A stretch of 64,000 nucleotides of DNA, from the NCBI GenBank assembly GCA_034530875.2, contig JAVRCJ020000031.1, forward strand, positions 1 to 64,000, read 5' to 3'. This stretch comes from Nostoc sp. DedSLP01 (GTDB lineage: Bacteria; Cyanobacteriota; Cyanobacteriia; Cyanobacteriales; Nostocaceae). Of this stretch, positions 1 through 6,175 are shown piece after piece (positions within the stretch are counted from its first letter, which is position 1; each line of letters starts with the position of its first letter). Below the pieces are notes generated by a model. That model was not told the DNA's origin, made no database searches, and was given only the letters and a program-made list of their open reading frames with translations. The position numbers were made by a program, and so were the translations under genes.

Positions 1-90
1 AAAAAACCCCCCCCCCCCCCCCCCCCCGGGTTTTTCACAACACCAAACCCCCCCCCCCCGCTTGGGGGGGGGTGGGGTGGGGGGTGGGTA
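1..90. other. Low-complexity poly-C/poly-G stretch, probably a contig-end or sequencing artefact
   Basis: Homopolymer runs of C and G unlike anything else in this AT-rich window. Confidence 0.6.
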
Positions 91-227
91 AACACGATTG
101 TGGGGCAAGAGTTTGAGCTTAAGTTGAAACGTATCTGTGCGCCCCTACGATAATTTGATTTTTAAGAGTGGATTCCAGTTAATTGAAAACTACTTTATGT
201 TCAATACCCAGGAAGTTTGTACTCTTT

Positions 228-1034
228 TTAATTATTTTTTGGTATTGCCAAACTGTGAGAATCAGAGTGAGTTTGACTCTTTAACCATGTTTGCAGCAGA
301 AATTCTAGTACTTGGTCTTTCACTTCTCTAAATTCATGAGAAAACCATTTTTCAACTTTCAGAATGTGATAACCTAATTTTGTTTGAACCGGGCCAATGA
401 CATCACCATCTTTTGCTTCTGCAATAGCTTGTCCTAGTTCTGGCATTAATTCGGAAACAAAACGAATACCTACAAAGCCACCACTTTCTTTAGATTGCTT
501 ACCTTTAGAATATTGTAGTGCTAAGCTACAAAATGCAGATTTATCTTCTTGTAGCGCTTGAACTATTCTTAAGGCTTCTGTGAGATCGGGTACGAGAATT
601 TGAGATAAAGCAACCCGTTTAAAAATATAAGGATCTACTAGATATTGAGTATCTATAGTCGAGCCAAATAGACGTTCTTTTAACTTTTGTGTCAGCAGTG
701 TAACTTTAATACTTTCAGACCACTGTTCTACTGTTAAACGCTGCTGTGCTAGCCATGCCAAGGTTTCTGAAGCTGTTAATAATTTGTGTTCTTGGCGGAA
801 GGTATCACCTGCGGCTTGCAGTTCATCCTCAGAAACAGTAATGTCTAACTGTTCGCAGAGGCGCAAAATCAAAACTTCTTGTTCGGTATCAGCGGCAATT
901 TGTGCAAGTTTATATGAATGGCGGAGATGGTCTAATATTTGTTCGTTTGTTGCGAGTGAAATTTCTGGCAGTTTTAGGGTTGCTAAAAGATTGTCACCGC
1001 TAGAGATTCTTGGTGTAGCTACATTTCCTGTCAT
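228..1034 (-). CDS. Parvulin/PpiC-type peptidyl-prolyl isomerase (foldase), last visible gene of the RiPP cluster
   Basis: 268 aa with rotamase motifs LSQILV, FCSLALQYS, GGFVG and GPVQTKLGYHILKV; starts 5 nt after the AKR stop. Confidence 0.85.
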   Translation of the reverse strand: MTGNVATPRISSGDNLLATLKLPEISLATNEQILDHLRHSYKLAQIAADTEQEVLILRLCEQLDITVSEDELQAAGDTFRQEHKLLTASETLAWLAQQRLTVEQWSESIKVTLLTQKLKERLFGSTIDTQYLVDPYIFKRVALSQILVPDLTEALRIVQALQEDKSAFCSLALQYSKGKQSKESGGFVGIRFVSELMPELGQAIAEAKDGDVIGPVQTKLGYHILKVEKWFSHEFREVKDQVLEFLLQTWLKSQTHSDSHSLAIPKNN

Positions 1035-1039
1035 AATTA

Positions 1040-2053
1040 TTAAGCTCGGTAAATTAGTTTATCTGTAGGAATATTTTGGGTTTGAAAACGATTGCGATGT
1101 AGATCGCCATAAACGTTAAGATAATCTATTTCTTCTTGGGTGAGTTTACCTTTTTGAATGCCTGCGATCGCTGCGTCTATATGTTCCCGTTTTTCTGAAC
1201 CCATGAGGCACACATCTACACAGTTTTGGCTCAAAGAATAGCGGTATAAATCGGGGACTGAAGGTTGCCAACATCCTTCGGGCAAACCAGCAGGCGGATA
1301 CCAAAGGGGCCCGTGCATTCCGGCTGATTTAAAGGTGACAATACCAGTTCGCTGCGGATCGTCAGCTTCTAAATTGTTGAATACGGTTTGTTGAGCAGTA
1401 CGGTGAGCGACATTATGTCTTACCATTGCTACATCTATTAAAGAATTATTCAGCCATTTATTAGCTAAATTTAAATCGTGAAAAGAAGCACCAATGTAAC
1501 GAACGGCTCCCATTTTTTTCAGACGTTCTGAAACACCAAACATTCTTTCGACGATGCGCTCGTAAATGCTACCGGCACCTCTTAAATCTTGAGAACGGTC
1601 TAAGCATTTTTCAAACATTGGCTCATCACTAGTACCAATCCAGCCCCAAAAGAAGACATCAATATAGTCCATTTTTAGGTCTACAAATTGGTCGATGATG
1701 GCTGCCATTGCCGCATCTGGATTTTTGATATAACTCACCGTTGCCAATACCACTTTTTCTCGTACTGAGGAGCCACGACCGCATAATTTCCGCAGTCCTT
1801 CAGACATGTGGCTGTAAAGATAGTGGTGTAAATCGCTGGAGTAAAAAAAGAAGTTAATTCCGCGATCGAAGGCGTAAAGTGTATCTTCACTAGAGATTTT
1901 ACCGCCACCTCCTAATCCCAGAGCGCTAACAGTTAAATCGGTTCGTCCTAGCTTGCGGTAAAAAGGTAAATCGGACTCAGGAAATTGATTGTTTAAATCA
2001 CTAACTTCGTTGGAAGTTGCTACTTTTGGGGCTGCAAGGTCGAGTATTTGCAT
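1040..2053 (-). CDS. Aldo/keto reductase-fold protein with atypical active site
   Basis: RKLGRTDLTVSALGLG, GINFF, DYIDVF and GAVRYIGAS are AKR signatures; ATG overlaps the upstream TAA (TAATG). Confidence 0.85.
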   Translation of the reverse strand: MQILDLAAPKVATSNEVSDLNNQFPESDLPFYRKLGRTDLTVSALGLGGGGKISSEDTLYAFDRGINFFFYSSDLHHYLYSHMSEGLRKLCGRGSSVREKVVLATVSYIKNPDAAMAAIIDQFVDLKMDYIDVFFWGWIGTSDEPMFEKCLDRSQDLRGAGSIYERIVERMFGVSERLKKMGAVRYIGASFHDLNLANKWLNNSLIDVAMVRHNVAHRTAQQTVFNNLEADDPQRTGIVTFKSAGMHGPLWYPPAGLPEGCWQPSVPDLYRYSLSQNCVDVCLMGSEKREHIDAAIAGIQKGKLTQEEIDYLNVYGDLHRNRFQTQNIPTDKLIYRA

Positions 2054-3174
2054 TAGTTCAACGGTGTGTAGATGTCTTCAGAGTTGGCATTAAGATAAGA
2101 ACGGTGTAATTCGATTCCCAACAGAGAGAAGTTTTCCAGAATCGCTTGCATCCGTTCGTTGGGAGAGTTCTTTCCTTGCTGGCTAGCTTGTAACAAGCCA
2201 TTAGCAATAATTTGACAGCGATTGATACCAAAACTTTCTTGGGCTGCAAATCTTTGGTTTGGTTCTTCTGCCAAACTTAGCCCTGGCATTAGTAATTTTG
2301 TGAATAATGGAACTTCTGGGTTAAAGTGCGATCGCTTTTCTGTATAAACACTTTGTAGAATTGGCCGAACAGTTTCGTAGTAGCTTTTCTCAAAGTAAAG
2401 TACTGCTGAGTCATAGCGGCCGTAGTCGCCGGGATTGTATAGTGCTTTAAATGTAAAAGGAATATTAACTTCGTTGAGTTGCTGCGTCAAGCTACCCATT
2501 ACCGCAACTGCACCTTCAGGACTTAAATTAAAGTAAATGCGTACAGTTTGTGGCTGATGATTTGGATTGCCGATAGTTTGCGGCCCGGCATTACCAACTG
2601 CCAAATAGAACCCATTTTGCACTCGATTTCGAGGTAGTCGAATCGCAACTAAGTCGCCTACTGTTGCCGATTGTTCGGCTGGTTGTAAGTGGTAATCGCG
2701 TTTAATATACAGGGTCAAACCACCTTTTGTCACCATCAAGGTATCGTCATTTACTTCCTTAACTACAGACCAATTACCGTCAAAGTAACCTTCTCCAGTA
2801 TTGCTGTTGTGTAAGCGATCGTAAAACGCTACATCTACCCCTAAAAAAGAGTTATTTTCTAAATCTTGGTGTAATTGCAGATTAGATGAATCAGCATCAA
2901 GCGCTAGAGTCGTTTGTAAAGAGCCATTATAATAAATTCCGTAGAGAAAACTACGCAATTGCAAGTTTGAATATCTATTTTGAACATCCTGAGACATCTT
3001 TTTGAAACGAACTACCACCTCTTCTGGCAGATCCAAAGGCTTATAATTTGGATGGCGAATGCAAAAATTAGACTCTATTTGAACGTTATTAACGATATCT
3101 TCTAAAGCATCCCACAGCCGTCTATCTGCTTGTGCTGATTGGTTTTGGGTAAATTCTAATAGTTGAGCAACCAT
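2053..3174 (-). CDS. HopA1-family phosphoSer/phosphoThr lyase (LanY-like dehydratase subunit)
   Basis: Motifs VRIYFN, FTFKAL, GRYDSAVLY, PLFTKLL..GLSLAEEP and ESFG..RC; clustered with an APH kinase and precursor peptides. Confidence 0.8.
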   Translation of the reverse strand: MVAQLLEFTQNQSAQADRRLWDALEDIVNNVQIESNFCIRHPNYKPLDLPEEVVVRFKKMSQDVQNRYSNLQLRSFLYGIYYNGSLQTTLALDADSSNLQLHQDLENNSFLGVDVAFYDRLHNSNTGEGYFDGNWSVVKEVNDDTLMVTKGGLTLYIKRDYHLQPAEQSATVGDLVAIRLPRNRVQNGFYLAVGNAGPQTIGNPNHQPQTVRIYFNLSPEGAVAVMGSLTQQLNEVNIPFTFKALYNPGDYGRYDSAVLYFEKSYYETVRPILQSVYTEKRSHFNPEVPLFTKLLMPGLSLAEEPNQRFAAQESFGINRCQIIANGLLQASQQGKNSPNERMQAILENFSLLGIELHRSYLNANSEDIYTPLN

Positions 3175-3230
3175 TGAATAAGTTAGTTAATAAATATGGT
3201 GAAAATGCTGGAAACTTCCTATTTTTTTGA

Positions 3231-3260
3231 AGTAACAGTGCTAAATAAAGCACTGTTACT
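3231..3260 (-). promoter_or_regulatory. Perfect 12-bp stem-loop without U-tract between precursor A4 and the lyase gene
   Basis: agtaacagtgct-aaataa-agcactgttact. Confidence 0.6.
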
Positions 3261-3295
3261 CTTGCTGAAAACCAACTACTATATAGCGTCAAATA

Positions 3296-3466
3296 CTATA
3301 AAGTAAAAGTTATTGTAATAGTTACAGTGATAGTTAGAGTGATTCCGAGCAAACCACCATTAACGTTGGTTAATTCTTCAGCATTTAGTTCATTGAGAAA
3401 GCTTTCAGAATCTTGAAATAGTTCGGAACCAGCGGGACTTAAGTCGTGCAATTTGATGTTAGCCAT
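3296..3466 (-). CDS. RiPP precursor peptide A4 (56 aa)
   Basis: Manual translation MANIKLHDLSPAGSELFQDSESFLNELNAEELTNVNGG-LLGITLTITVTITITFTL*; AGGAG RBS upstream; leader shared with three paralogs. Confidence 0.92.
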   Translation of the reverse strand: MANIKLHDLSPAGSELFQDSESFLNELNAEELTNVNGGLLGITLTITVTITITFTL

Positions 3467-3500
3467 GATGATTTATCTCCTAATTGAGTTAATTTAATTA

Positions 3501-3545
3501 AGTTATGAACTTTTTAGTTCATGTTTAAATATTGGCATATTGATT
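3501..3545 (-). promoter_or_regulatory. Duplicated upstream block, copy in front of A4, with ATGAAC-N6-GTTCAT palindrome
   Basis: agttatgaactttttagttcatgtttaaatattggcatattgatt, near-identical to 4629-4673. Confidence 0.6.
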
Positions 3546-3634
3546 TGAGTAAAACAACATAAATACAATGCTTTTTCGGGCAGAACTAAAACCTTTATGT
3601 CATGTTTTATTTTCGTTAGTTATCTTATATAGTC

Positions 3635-3673
3635 AAAAAAATCTGCCTTGAGACAATGTGTCATCGAAGCAGA
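3635..3673 (-). terminator. Probable intrinsic terminator
   Basis: Minus strand TCTGCTTCGATGACACATTGTCTCAAGGCAGA followed by T7. Confidence 0.45.
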
Positions 3674-3842
3674 ACTAAAACCTTACCAATTATAAGTTTG
3701 AGAAAAATTCAGGTTATACAACCATACAATTTCCAGCTAAACAGAAGTTTCATCTCTGTTGCCTGCTGAGTTCTGCATTACCTAGAGGGTTATCTGAAGT
3801 AGGTATCAGTTATAATTTTCAGCTTCTGTCTGCAATCTAAAC

Positions 3843-3879
3843 AAAAAAAAGACAGTTCCGCCAAGCAGAACTGTCTTTT
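3843..3879 (-). terminator. Intrinsic terminator after precursor A3
   Basis: Minus strand AAAAGACAGTTC-TGCTTGGCG-GAACTGTCTTTTTTTT: perfect stem plus U-tract. Confidence 0.8.
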
Positions 3880-3895
3880 AGACAAAATTAAAAAA

Positions 3896-4063
3896 TTACA
3901 CAGTTACAGTCCAAGTCATCGGCCAGCAATAAGTAAATGACTCTGTTTTAAAACCTCCTTGCACTCCCAGTTCTGCATCTGTGAGTTCATTGAGAAAGCT
4001 TTCAGAATCTTGAAATAGTTCGGAACCTGCGGGATTTAAGTCATGAATTTTGATAGTAGCCAT
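3896..4063 (-). CDS. RiPP precursor peptide A3 (55 aa)
   Basis: Manual translation MATIKIHDLNPAGSELFQDSESFLNELTDAELGVQGG-FKTESFTYCWPMTWTVTV*; AAGGA RBS. Confidence 0.92.
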   Translation of the reverse strand: MATIKIHDLNPAGSELFQDSESFLNELTDAELGVQGGFKTESFTYCWPMTWTVTV

Positions 4064-4093
4064 CAGTTCTCATCCTTAAATATTGTGTGAATC

Positions 4094-4130
4094 AAAAAAA
4101 AAGACAGTTCCACTAAGCAGAACCGTCTTT
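4094..4130 (-). terminator. Intrinsic terminator-like hairpin after precursor A2
   Basis: Minus strand AAAGACGGTTC-TGCTTAGTG-GAACTGTC plus T-run; paralog of 3843-3879 with one G-U pair. Confidence 0.7.
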
Positions 4131-4146
4131 AAGCAAAACTAAAAAA

Positions 4147-4326
4147 TTACCAAGTCCAAGACCAAGAGTAAGTAACTGTCAAAGTAATAGAAACAGTAAC
4201 CGATTCTGCTCTCAAACCACCATGTACTCCGAGTTCTGCATCTGTTAATTCATTAAGAAAGCTCTCAGAATCTTGAAACAGTTCAGAACCAGCGGGACTC
4301 AAGTCATGAATTTTGATAGTAGCCAT
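4147..4326 (-). CDS. RiPP precursor peptide A2 (59 aa)
   Basis: Manual translation MATIKIHDLSPAGSELFQDSESFLNELTDAELGVHGG-LRAESVTVSITLTVTYSWSWTW*; GAGGA RBS. Confidence 0.93.
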   Translation of the reverse strand: MATIKIHDLSPAGSELFQDSESFLNELTDAELGVHGGLRAESVTVSITLTVTYSWSWTW

Positions 4327-4366
4327 AAGTTATTATCCTCAAAAAATTAATGTGTGAATTACAAAC

Positions 4367-4401
4367 AAAAAAGACAGTTTGACTAAATATGACTATCTTT
4401 T
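4367..4401 (-). terminator. Weakened terminator-like hairpin after precursor A1
   Basis: Minus strand AAAAGATAGTCATATTTAGTCAAACTGTCTTTTTT; degenerate paralog of the other two hairpins. Confidence 0.5.
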
Positions 4402-4417
4402 AAGTAAAACTAAAAAA

Positions 4418-4597
4418 TTACCAAGTCCAAGACCAAGAGTAAGTAACTGTCAAAGTAATAGTAACCGTAACTGATTCTGCTGCTCGACCGCCGTGTACTC
4501 CCAGTTCTGCATCTGTTAGCTCGTTGAGAAAGCTTTCAGAATCTTGAAACAGTTCGGAACCAGCGGGGCTTAAGTCGTGAATTTTGATAGTAGCCAT
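4418..4597 (-). CDS. RiPP precursor peptide A1 (59 aa)
   Basis: Manual translation MATIKIHDLSPAGSELFQDSESFLNELTDAELGVHGG-RAAESVTVTITLTVTYSWSWTW*; AGGAG RBS. Confidence 0.93.
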   Translation of the reverse strand: MATIKIHDLSPAGSELFQDSESFLNELTDAELGVHGGRAAESVTVTITLTVTYSWSWTW

Positions 4598-4628
4598 GAG
4601 ATTTCTCCTAATTGAATAAAGTTAAATG

Positions 4629-4673
4629 AGTTATGAACTTTTTGGTTCATGTCTAAATATTGGCATAGTGATT
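4629..4673 (-). promoter_or_regulatory. Duplicated upstream block, copy in front of A1, with ATGAAC-N6-GTTCAT palindrome
   Basis: agttatgaactttttggttcatgtctaaatattggcatagtgatt. Confidence 0.6.
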
Positions 4674-4825
4674 CAGAAATTAGCTAATATCAAACAGTAA
4701 CTTTTATCCCTTTAATACATCTTTTTTGTCATCTTTTATATTTTGTATTTTGCTAGGGAAATAAATCTGGTACTGCAAATTTTGCGATCGAAGTATGTAC
4801 CTTAATAGATTACTCAACAATAAAA

Positions 4826-4857
4826 GGTGCGTTAGCCTACGGCATAACACACCCTAC
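4826..4857 (-). repeat. GTAG-type REP-like palindrome
   Basis: Minus strand GTAGGGTGTGTTATGCCGTAGGCTAACGCACC. Confidence 0.5.
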
Positions 4858-4993
4858 GAATATATTGGATTTCGCTCGACACATTTGTTATTGAGATATA
4901 GTTATTTTCAACTTGCAAAAATGCAAGAAATGGTGAAACAACACTGTTGTTATTTCACCTAAACCTTACCAATTGCAATTATCAAAAATTTAT

Positions 4994-6175
4994 TTAATTA
5001 TGAGAGCTACTGAGTTGGGTTAATTCTGCTGCTGTCGTTCCAAAAACGGTAGGAATAGATTGCTCTGGACGACACAACAAACTTTTAGCAACCTGAAGCA
5101 TAGAAATACCCATATTGCCAAAAGATTTTTGATATTGAATTATGGACTGAATTGATTGAATCAATGCCAGACCAGAAAATTGCACGACTCGCTTAATAAA
5201 ATCAGGATAGCGAACCAAAATTTCTGGAAAAGATTCTAAATAAGCGCTAATCAAAGCATAAATAGAAGGTTGGAGGGATTCGAGGGGAGTCGTAGCTAGG
5301 CGTAAAGATTCCTCGATAGTCATTTCTTTACTAACAATTAAGCTGTTGAGCCAAATTTGTAGATAGCTGCCGATAATTGTCCCTAAATCGAAAGCAGGAT
5401 CTCCCCAAGCCGATCGCTCCCAATCAATCAATCGCACAATGCCGTTTCCTGATACTTCGGCTTGAGTAAAGAACTGTTCCCAATCTTGATGCAATAAAAC
5501 GTTGTTGAGTTTGAGGTCGTTGTGCGTCAGACATCGCGGCTTGAAAGCTGTACTCAGTTCTCTGAGTGCTTCTCCCAAGCTATCGTATCGCTGATAGAGG
5601 GCAAAAAACTTTAAGCCATCAGCGGGTACAGAACCAAAAATTTCCGGGCCAATCTGCTCCAATTTCCGAATTAAAAGCAACACCAAATCGGATTTGATAT
5701 TATCGGAATTTTGAGAGAAGAAATCGTGATATTTATCGCTATTGAAGGTTTCACGATGGATTGTCGCTATAAAATTACCAATACCTGCTGCGATCGCTGG
5801 CGGGAATATATTTCCTTTCATATAGAAATCGTTTAAATCCCGATAGTTATCTAGGTATTTAAAGACAATAATCGAATTTTCTTTATCGAAATGCAGCGCT
5901 TCTGGTAAAAATGGTTTTGTGTAATTCAGTTCGGGAAACTTTTGTACTAACTCTTGAATTCGCCATTCGTCTAAAAACTCACCTGCTGTTTTTCCTTCCT
6001 GATTGTGCCGTTCTTGTTTAACTAAAAGCTTGCGACCGTCTGACAGAGTGAGCAATAAATTAAAATTTTTAGCAGCTACAGCCTCAATCTTTGCCACAGA
6101 TTGCTCTGATTGAGCCAATAAGTCACGTTCGACTAAATAATCGAAAACATTGTTAGAGTTCAATATAAATGTCAT
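4994..6175 (-). CDS. APH/phosphotransferase-family kinase (LanK-like dehydratase subunit)
   Basis: LLVKQE, catalytic loop THNDLKLNNVL, LIDWE and GDPAFDLG; directly upstream of the precursor array. Confidence 0.85.
   Translation of the reverse strand: MTFILNSNNVFDYLVERDLLAQSEQSVAKIEAVAAKNFNLLLTLSDGRKLLVKQERHNQEGKTAGEFLDEWRIQELVQKFPELNYTKPFLPEALHFDKENSIIVFKYLDNYRDLNDFYMKGNIFPPAIAAGIGNFIATIHRETFNSDKYHDFFSQNSDNIKSDLVLLLIRKLEQIGPEIFGSVPADGLKFFALYQRYDSLGEALRELSTAFKPRCLTHNDLKLNNVLLHQDWEQFFTQAEVSGNGIVRLIDWERSAWGDPAFDLGTIIGSYLQIWLNSLIVSKEMTIEESLRLATTPLESLQPSIYALISAYLESFPEILVRYPDFIKRVVQFSGLALIQSIQSIIQYQKSFGNMGISMLQVAKSLLCRPEQSIPTVFGTTAAELTQLSSSHN

Follow-up and report, generated by a model that had tools for sequence, protein, structure and literature searches.

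A LanK/LanY-type dehydratase, alternating Ser/Thr precursors and a divergent aldo-keto reductase in Nostoc sp. DedSLP01: a candidate pathway to linear L/D peptides

This work concerns a gene cluster for a peptide that is ribosomally synthesized and then post-translationally modified (RiPP) in Nostoc sp. DedSLP01 (assembly GCA_034530875.2). The stretch analysed, 64,000 nt of contig JAVRCJ020000031.1 (contig C31), is referred to throughout as the window. Eight genes of the cluster lie in it, all as open reading frames on the minus strand, in the order kinase, precursors A1 to A4, HopA1-family lyase, divergent aldo-keto reductase (AKR) and a protein resembling peptidyl-prolyl isomerases (PPIase). 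This bears out the order and common orientation given in an initial annotation made from the sequence, and the overlap of the lyase stop and AKR start that it described, TAATG, is likewise present. The features on which our proposal turns are the spacing of Ser and Thr in the precursor cores and the AKR, which together suggest a candidate route to linear peptides in which L and D residues alternate.

The gene set and its dehydratase

The genes of the cluster within the window are as follows.

4994..6175, minus strand: LanK-like Ser/Thr kinase of the APH fold, 393 aa (Pfam APH, 2.9e-8; NCBIfam LxmK, 2.1e-27, sub-threshold; catalytic residues)
4418..4597, minus strand: precursor A1, 37-aa double-glycine leader and 22-aa core (4421-4486)
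4147..4326, minus strand: precursor A2, 95% identical to A1, 22-aa core (4150-4215)
3896..4063, minus strand: precursor A3, 18-aa core (3899-3952)
3296..3466, minus strand: precursor A4, 18-aa core (3299-3352)
2053..3174, minus strand: LanY-like HopA1-family phospho-Ser/Thr lyase, 373 aa (PF17914, 4.5e-58)
1040..2053, minus strand: divergent AKR, candidate dehydroamino-acid reductase, 337 aa (Aldo_ket_red, 1.4e-8; AKR barrel), translationally coupled to the lyase
228..1034, minus strand: PpiC-type PPIase-like protein with a SurA-like N-terminus, probable chaperone, 268 aa (Rotamase, 3.8e-15; relative of the TIGR04500 peptide-maturation proteins)

Pfam matches all four domains (APH, HopA1, Aldo_ket_red and Rotamase) that the initial annotation had named for checking. 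The kinase is a homologue of LxmK and not an equivalog, as its score of 96 bits against a cut-off of 315 bits indicates; it has K53, H218, D220, K222, N225 and the D251-W-E motif, which are conserved in most of 83 homologues. The lyase matches 9dk1_B in sequence (2.4e-9), and its structure model matches the lyase chain of the lexapeptide dehydratase LxmKY (E 6e-13). CaoY requires R187, K219 and R229, and a conserved Y236 is also noted (Liang et al., PMC9486802); in the window lyase R212, K243, R253 and Y260 are spaced alike, except that the first two are one residue closer together, and 78-79 of 90 homologues keep them. Because both proteins keep the catalytic residues of characterised homologues, we infer dehydration and conclude with good confidence that the pair is a LanK/LanY-type Ser/Thr dehydratase, in agreement with the initial annotation.

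Across the family, catalytic residues are missing in about 10 of the 90 lyases (the catalytic Lys) and 10 of the 83 kinases. These are probably the second pair of tandem kinase-lyase-precursor-kinase-lyase loci without an AKR (L014, L017, L019, L020, L027, L030-L032, L034 and L038), where they may be pseudo-enzymes acting as a cyclase; the tandem loci have short cores with a motif like Ser-Leu-Leu-Leu-Cys. An orphan kinase-lyase pair without precursor or AKR, L083 (G000:C24:12563-15444), is also degenerate, its lyase lacking the catalytic Lys and its kinase the HxD...NN loop. A paralogous kinase-lyase-AKR-PPIase cluster, L082 (G000:C40:24413-40704; 62-68% identity), has five non-alternating precursors and its own exporter, with a LanM gene adjoining.

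The cluster does not end with the window. Eight orthologous loci (L001-L008), from named Nostoc genomes and with lyases 90-92% identical to that of the window, all align first to C31, with the alignment going on at about position 160 of contig C2, and the cluster therefore extends onto C2. A search of the whole genome for the protein families that define related classes places the only LanC domain on contig C40 (in a LanM), flavoproteins on C6 and C19 and YcaO proteins on C4 and C23, with none of the three on C31 or C2, so that the absence of LanC, of a decarboxylase for aminovinyl-cysteine and of YcaO noted in the initial annotation holds beyond the window. A class V cyclase, its kinase-fold partner and a flavin decarboxylase are absent from C31, C2 and the eight orthologous loci; as regards thioamitides, YcaO occurs only on C4 and C23, and TfuA was not searched for.

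The cluster resembles class V systems (lexapeptide LxmK/Y, cacaoidin CaoK/Y) and thioamitide systems (TvaC/D, TsaC/D) in its split kinase and HopA1 lyase, in the residues of the pair and in their fold. It differs from them in lacking LanC, YcaO, a flavin decarboxylase and a second protein of the kinase fold, and in that none of its cores has a C-terminal Cys. In class V the dehydroalanine (Dha) and dehydrobutyrine (Dhb) residues are also reduced to D-residues, by LanJC, whereas here an AKR stands in place of the F420-dependent reductase and a C39 transporter serves for export. The system works like a class V dehydratase, yet by the tests of Cys content and cyclase it is not a class V lanthipeptide, and with no cyclase in the cluster the earlier view of the product as linear, dehydrated and possibly reduced gains support.

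The gene set had been regarded as one that could not be assigned to a described class. It is in fact described, as Family 1A, which comprises 570 peptides in 183 cyanobacterial clusters found in silico, with a conserved double-glycine leader, variable cores without conserved Ser, Thr or Cys, and products left open (Eyles et al. 2021, PMC8153245). Its class does remain unassigned, and we found no paper giving a product for the family, although subscription papers lay mostly outside the search and a characterisation may exist. The datasets accompanying PMC8153245 score an orthologue in Nostoc linckia NIES-25 (WP_096537472; locus L002, lyase 92% identical to that of the window) with kinase, PPIase, AKR, peptidase and transporter and without LanC, flavoprotein or YcaO, and the precursors that they list for it under Network 1 are identical to those of L002 and near-identical to those of the window. 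The window cluster shares with Family 1A the double-glycine leader, the multiple precursors and the kinase/HopA1 pair, and is a real, intact member of this catalogued but uncharacterised RiPP family. A neighbourhood survey across cyanobacteria, suggested with the initial annotation, finds a kinase in 76 of 80 lyase loci and an AKR in 45.

What this analysis adds is the phase-locked cores in the register of gramicidin A and the linkage of an AKR family to dehydratases. Neither appears in any paper found, though subscription papers and closed supplements may bear on this: the main text of PMC8153245, taken without its supplementary figures S26-S28, says nothing of alternation or of what the AKR might do, the accessible text of PMC10880069 is silent on both alternating cores and the AKR family, the lipoavitide preprint and PMC10034643 hold nothing relevant, and the nostolanthin preprint, in the part available, concerns a class II system.

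Placement of serine and threonine in the precursor cores

After the Gly-Gly of the leader the cores of A1, A2, A3 and A4 contain 9, 9, 6 and 7 Ser/Thr residues respectively, which agrees with the ceiling of nine dehydrations for A1 and A2 and seven for A4 given earlier. In A1 they occupy positions 5, 7 and so on to 21, and the core ends in Y-S-W-S-W-T-W; the nine of A2 are locked in one phase, and its core has the same aromatic tail, and in A4 seven Thr alternate with Ile, Leu, Val or Phe. The six Ser/Thr of A3 also keep to one phase, with Cys (position 9) and Pro (position 11) filling gaps in it. A3 is the sole precursor with a Cys, so that three of the four cores are Cys-free as had been claimed, and no core ends in Cys. 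Within-core shuffles give p of about 0.0002-0.0004 for the alternation of A1, A2 and A4, which is beyond chance. There is no long alternating run in A3 (p 0.16), and the single phase of its six Ser/Thr has P 0.009.

The same phase is kept among relatives. Counted over 26 distinct cores from the window and its orthologues, Ser/Thr fall 198 times at odd and 2 times at even positions, as against 440 and 473 in 137 cores from other loci, and 24 of the 26 are single-phase compared with none of 111 others that have four or more Ser/Thr. These counts leave out cores shorter than six residues, containing X or lacking a called Gly-Gly, and the L007 locus contributes no core; the 26 are close kin and represent one strong pattern and not many independent events. 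Within the clade most differences in core length are multiples of two residues, Ser can stand for Thr and the reverse, and the codons in use include several for Thr and members of both Ser families. This variety of codons argues that the pattern is held at the protein level, and it rules out slippage of DNA as the sole origin of the alternation. Positions in the Ser/Thr phase are nearly all Ser or Thr with a few Pro and Cys and never Asn, Asp or His, and Gln, Lys and Glu are confined to the other phase.

Among 135 cores from 40 regions picked by AKR score, at least five alternations occur in only two, with 12 and 13, and both belong to L226, from another genus. The cores of L226 include Thr-Arg-Thr-Arg, L258 is a second locus of this kind, and L226 and its relatives have 24 Arg among the residues lying between Ser/Thr; Arg between Thr in these cores means that the alternation is not simply one of polar and non-polar residues. 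A profile search seeded with alternating precursors, and hence biased towards alternation, gives runs of five or more in 50 of the 120 clusters listed, in either phase relative to the leader. Many precursors of the family carry a precomputed assignment to PF27893. One family precursor, P0356, shows the pattern in a polar form, with Thr and Gln alternating over 15 steps.

Counting the last 15 residues of A1 and A2, the aromatic residues stand at positions 9, 11, 13 and 15 and Ser/Thr at the even positions. In gramicidin A, a 15-mer in which D and L residues alternate, Trp stands at 9, 11, 13 and 15 and both ends are blocked (PMC7531004, with which PMC12887759 agrees); D-residues occupy 4, 6, 8, 10, 12 and 14, and Gly is at 2 (PMC7531004). 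The Ser/Thr of A1 and A2 coincide exactly with its D positions. This register is found in A1 and A2 and not in A3 or A4; Tyr takes the first aromatic site in A1 and A2, and the orthologues carry four Trp. In 14 of the 120 clusters listed, that of the window included, there is a tail in which seven Ser/Thr are interleaved with eight other residues and positions 9, 11, 13 and 15 are aromatic.

The likeness to gramicidin A thus lies in a predicted strict L/D alternation, in hydrophobicity and in the four aromatics. Gramicidin A is non-ribosomal and contains D-Leu and D-Val, whereas the peptides here are ribosomal, predicted to contain D-Ala and D-2-aminobutyrate (D-Abu), and 18-22 residues long with a charged N-terminal stretch and no terminal caps known. 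Polytheonamides are alternating peptides that form beta-helical channels. Like the peptides predicted here, these proteusins are ribosomal with many D-residues (18 in a 48-mer), but their D-residues are made by PoyD, a radical S-adenosylmethionine (SAM) epimerase, on a leader of another type; there is no radical-SAM gene in the cluster or its eight orthologues L001-L008.

The divergent aldo-keto reductase and the neighbouring genes

The structure model of the AKR (predicted local distance difference test score 77.7) matches an AKR barrel with Z 24.4 and a root mean square deviation of 2.7 over 253 residues, and HHalign gives the AKR assignment a probability score of 99.7. Read against Kv-beta2 and 15 canonical AKRs of the same genome, the Asp-Tyr-Lys-His tetrad is absent: in both alignments the Lys column holds V106 and the His column G137, and the Asp and Tyr columns hold F70 and L75 or Y71 and H76, depending on a one-residue gap. 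The family has an invariant polar set of its own (D74, H76, Y80, Y108, H192, R212 and N214) that persists from 59% to 25% identity, and columns of the cofactor site are kept, for example S190, F241 and G285. The AKR represents a distinct family with a remodelled and, by comparison of its members, conserved site.

The AKR keeps close company with dehydratases. In 44 of the 45 loci that have both a lyase and an AKR, the AKR follows no more than 150 nt behind the lyase, and all 40 AKR-picked regions contain kinase and lyase. Among 401 genomes of the phylum there are 14 AKR matches, 12 in kinase-lyase clusters and 2 beside LanM (L179 and L180); in Nostocaceae, the family of the window, 99 of 389 genomes carry it. 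One representative, P0174, is a HopA1-AKR fusion. For distant relatives in metagenomes, dereplicated at 90%, LanB is present in 23 of 58 groups and in 10 of 16 among loci of at least 5 kb, these being raw counts obtained with LanB queries from four of the loci and confirmed by Pfam. Other distant members are preceded by peptide exporters and by Gly-Gly peptides in arrays. Since the AKR occurs near three unrelated dehydratases (LanK/Y, LanM and LanB) whose shared product is a dehydroamino acid, a dehydroamino acid is its likely substrate, and on this gene context we think it somewhat more probable than not that the AKR reduces dehydro residues.

Dehydration followed by reduction is an established route to D-Ala and D-Abu via three other enzyme folds, the zinc-, flavin- and F420-dependent LanJ classes, all of which give D-residues (PMC11519912, PMC9811515). 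The reaction and pathway position proposed here for the AKR are those of LanJA, LanJB and LanJC (of the LtnJA, RodJA, BsjJB and LxmJ types); the difference is one of fold, an AKR TIM barrel.

Several related loci combine the AKR family with other maturation genes. At L179:5870-16003 and L180:6009-18501 it lies beside two LanM genes and many precursors of the Nif11/NHLP type, most of them Cys-free. Metagenome clusters L097, L096, L101 and L120 have an AKR-family gene, a peptide exporter, LanB, a B12-type radical SAM protein and a JmjC protein, with up to nine short peptides whose Lys-rich leaders end in Gly-Gly. Remoter relatives of the AKR are fused to HEAT repeats or to a JmjC or ABC domain (P0258, P0259, P0265, P0249, P0224 and P0236). 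Many clusters of the family, L198, L200 and L202 among them, adjoin a Nif11-class radical SAM maturase (TIGR04103) with a small partner and apparently share one exporter with it.

The other features of the locus, including those beyond the contig break, are as follows.

3847..3879, minus strand: hairpin with a T-run, 3' of A3 (sequence)
4100-4130 (after A2) and 4365-4416 (after A1), minus strand: hairpins related to that after A3 (sequence)
4932-4959, minus strand: separate hairpin, 3' of the kinase gene (sequence)
1..110, no strand given: G/C-rich repeat at the contig end, beyond which the cluster runs on to G000:C2
G000:C2 212-1165, outside the window: Rce1/CAAX protease (Pfam)
G000:C2, after the CAAX protease to about 7150: second PPIase-like gene, HlyD, ATP-binding cassette exporter with a C39 peptidase, helix-turn-helix protein (Pfam)

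The C39 domain of the exporter has its catalytic Cys motif. The hairpins may stabilise or terminate precursor-rich transcripts. A 78-nt repeat (86%) at window positions 3468-3545 and 4596-4673, directly upstream of A4 and A1, is possibly a shared promoter or regulator site and suggests separate precursor transcripts; a promoter scan of the locus gives matches at chance level (15 against 16.7).

A close homologue of the PPIase is found in 44 of the 80 lyase loci and 39 of the 40 AKR-picked regions. The CAAX protease occurs in 9 of 126 loci, namely L001-L008 and L226, and within the genus is present in the same eight genomes as the closest AKR. CAAX proteases have a role in immunity, and its presence fits a membrane-active product in need of self-protection. 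It is not an exclusive marker of alternating cores, as precursors of this kind are missing from the surroundings of six of eight remoter homologues. In L226 the gene that separates the CAAX protease from the precursors (L226:9101-9799) encodes a 232-aa membrane protein, also present in L258 and without an NCBIfam match, which is a candidate immunity factor.

Trees of the AKR (85.8/87) and of the PPIase (82.8) unite the two alternating lineages and those of the kinase and lyase do not, but approximately unbiased (AU) tests do not reject this grouping for kinase or lyase (p-AU 0.17 and 0.39). A closer co-evolution of alternation with the AKR than with the kinase and lyase is not shown.

Proposed pathway and competing explanations

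We propose a cyclase-free RiPP pathway in which dehydration and reduction by the AKR would lead to linear peptides of alternating L and D residues, a proposal for which, on the gene and peptide sequences, we regard the balance as even. In a first step the kinase would bind the shared leader and phosphorylate Ser/Thr of the core, as its homology suggests, and the HopA1 lyase would eliminate the phosphate to give Dha and Dhb, a step for which homology argues well. In the second, the AKR, as a fourth kind of LanJ, would reduce the dehydro residues with hydride from NAD(P)H, with protonation perhaps via His76 or Tyr108 instead of the usual Tyr/Lys pair, to yield D-Ala and D-Abu. The PPIase-like proteins would then keep the hydrophobic precursor soluble, and by analogy with homologues the C39 exporter would cleave at Gly-Gly and secrete the product through HlyD, with the CAAX protease possibly giving self-protection. 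Given Ser/Thr at every second position, such products would alternate L and D and be almost wholly hydrophobic, A1 and A2 carrying their four tail aromatics in the gramicidin A register; they may adopt a beta-helical fold in membranes and serve as ion channels directed at competitors or grazers. That conversion is nearly complete and of D stereochemistry could, on the gene context, go either way. A beta-helical channel function we put forward as possible but somewhat doubtful, and we would be equally tentative about the broadest view, that of a ribosomal convergence on the gramicidin A design, with alternating L/D, Trp-anchored channels made by an AKR-fold fourth LanJ class that would also serve LanB and LanM clusters in several phyla.

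The best of the competing explanations, unlikely in our estimation though to be taken seriously, is that the product stays a linear poly-dehydro peptide, linaridin-like, with Dhb or Dha alternating with L-residues, and that the AKR fold is a non-catalytic partner, a cofactor sensor or a reductase of few sites. Three observations speak for this and equally against reduction by the AKR: all four canonical AKR catalytic residues are lost, so that it may be inactive or have another activity; non-enzymatic barrels, Kv-beta subunits and SmbA, are among its fold matches; and 35 of the 80 lyase loci (some of them incomplete) show no AKR. Alternating flat dehydro residues could, moreover, likewise set a regular shape. 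The AKR nevertheless keeps its new invariant polar set to 25% identity together with the cofactor-site columns, and one would not expect three unrelated dehydratases to share a scaffold.

Alternation of Thr with Ile or Val is a textbook beta-strand pattern, and the cores might be amphipathic beta-strands (amyloid, surfactant, sheath or Thr-ladder surfaces) in which few sites are modified and the alternation reflects polar and non-polar faces. It could be added that Thr flanked by beta-branched residues may be a poor kinase substrate. We consider this improbable, as the supposed polar face is almost purely Ser/Thr to the exclusion of Asn, Asp and His, with Gln, Lys and Glu in the other phase, the supposed non-polar face carries the 24 Arg of L226 and its relatives, and the dehydratase is intact.

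ElxO is a ketoreductase of epilancin biosynthesis, and the AKR might act in the same way on an N-terminal pyruvyl or oxobutyryl group left by cleavage, the internal residues staying dehydrated. Carbonyl reduction is the normal AKR reaction, and Ser5 would become N-terminal once four residues had been trimmed off. Yet Ser/Thr is the first core residue in 0 of 22 cores of the clade, and it shows no enrichment with the AKR (12 of 104 with it, 7 of 48 without); the residues lost from the AKR are the carbonyl-activating ones, and apart from the CAAX protease the cluster has no peptidase for trimming, which makes this explanation very improbable. Least credible of all is an end product that is poly-phosphorylated or a lanthipeptide cyclised in trans by the LanM of C40, for which one can cite the family lyases without catalytic Lys, the LanM adjoining the paralogous cluster on C40 and the single Cys of A3, but which must contend with a window lyase that has all four catalytic residues, three Cys-free cores out of four, and a LanM that is present in no more than 8 of 80 loci and missing from all 8 orthologues.

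Returning to the proposed L/D pathway, a number of further points weigh against it or its parts. In most AKR-bearing clusters the cores are helix-like and do not alternate, so that alternation does not follow from the presence of an AKR; LanB was not seen at 6 of the 16 long AKR loci from outside the cyanobacteria; and the single Cys of A3 has no explanation in the model. The alternating cores stem from perhaps two related lineages, whose counts are not independent, and the trees, in which the AKR does not stand apart, support one origin of the alternating clusters only moderately. Steroid 5-beta-reductase is an AKR that reduces C=C bonds, but a literature search for this precedent of ene-reduction found no paper, and none was found on an AKR acting on dehydroamino acids, subscription papers being largely outside the search. 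As to the likeness to gramicidin A, the Cys and Pro of A3 and the all-aliphatic A4 do not fit its register, and C-terminal Trp clusters are a common membrane anchor. The cores have a charged N-terminal stretch and a free carboxylate where the termini of gramicidin are blocked, and among the genes of the cluster, including its eight orthologues, there is no sign of an enzyme for formyl or amide capping; with a charged start and no caps a head-to-head dimer is doubtful, and one may speculate that a double helix or trimming would be needed.

Full modification according to the proposed pathway predicts 9, 9, 6 and 7 water losses for A1 to A4 and as many steps of +2 Da. The monoisotopic masses calculated for the core without modification, after complete dehydration and after subsequent reduction are 2557.29, 2395.19 and 2413.33 for A1, 2585.32, 2423.22 and 2441.36 for A2, 2226.02, 2117.95 and 2130.05 for A3, and 1933.18, 1807.10 and 1821.21 for A4. 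Among cyanobacterial RiPP families still to be characterised Family 1A ranks with the largest, and the present clade offers the cleanest test of its products. If the AKR is a reductase, it would be a new and probably oxygen-tolerant NAD(P)H enzyme that writes D-Ala and D-Abu into gene-encoded peptides, and the orphan AKRs of LanB and LanM clusters would be explained. If the products are beta-helical, they would constitute a ribosomal counterpart to a non-ribosomal channel antibiotic, made by a chemistry unlike that of polytheonamide.

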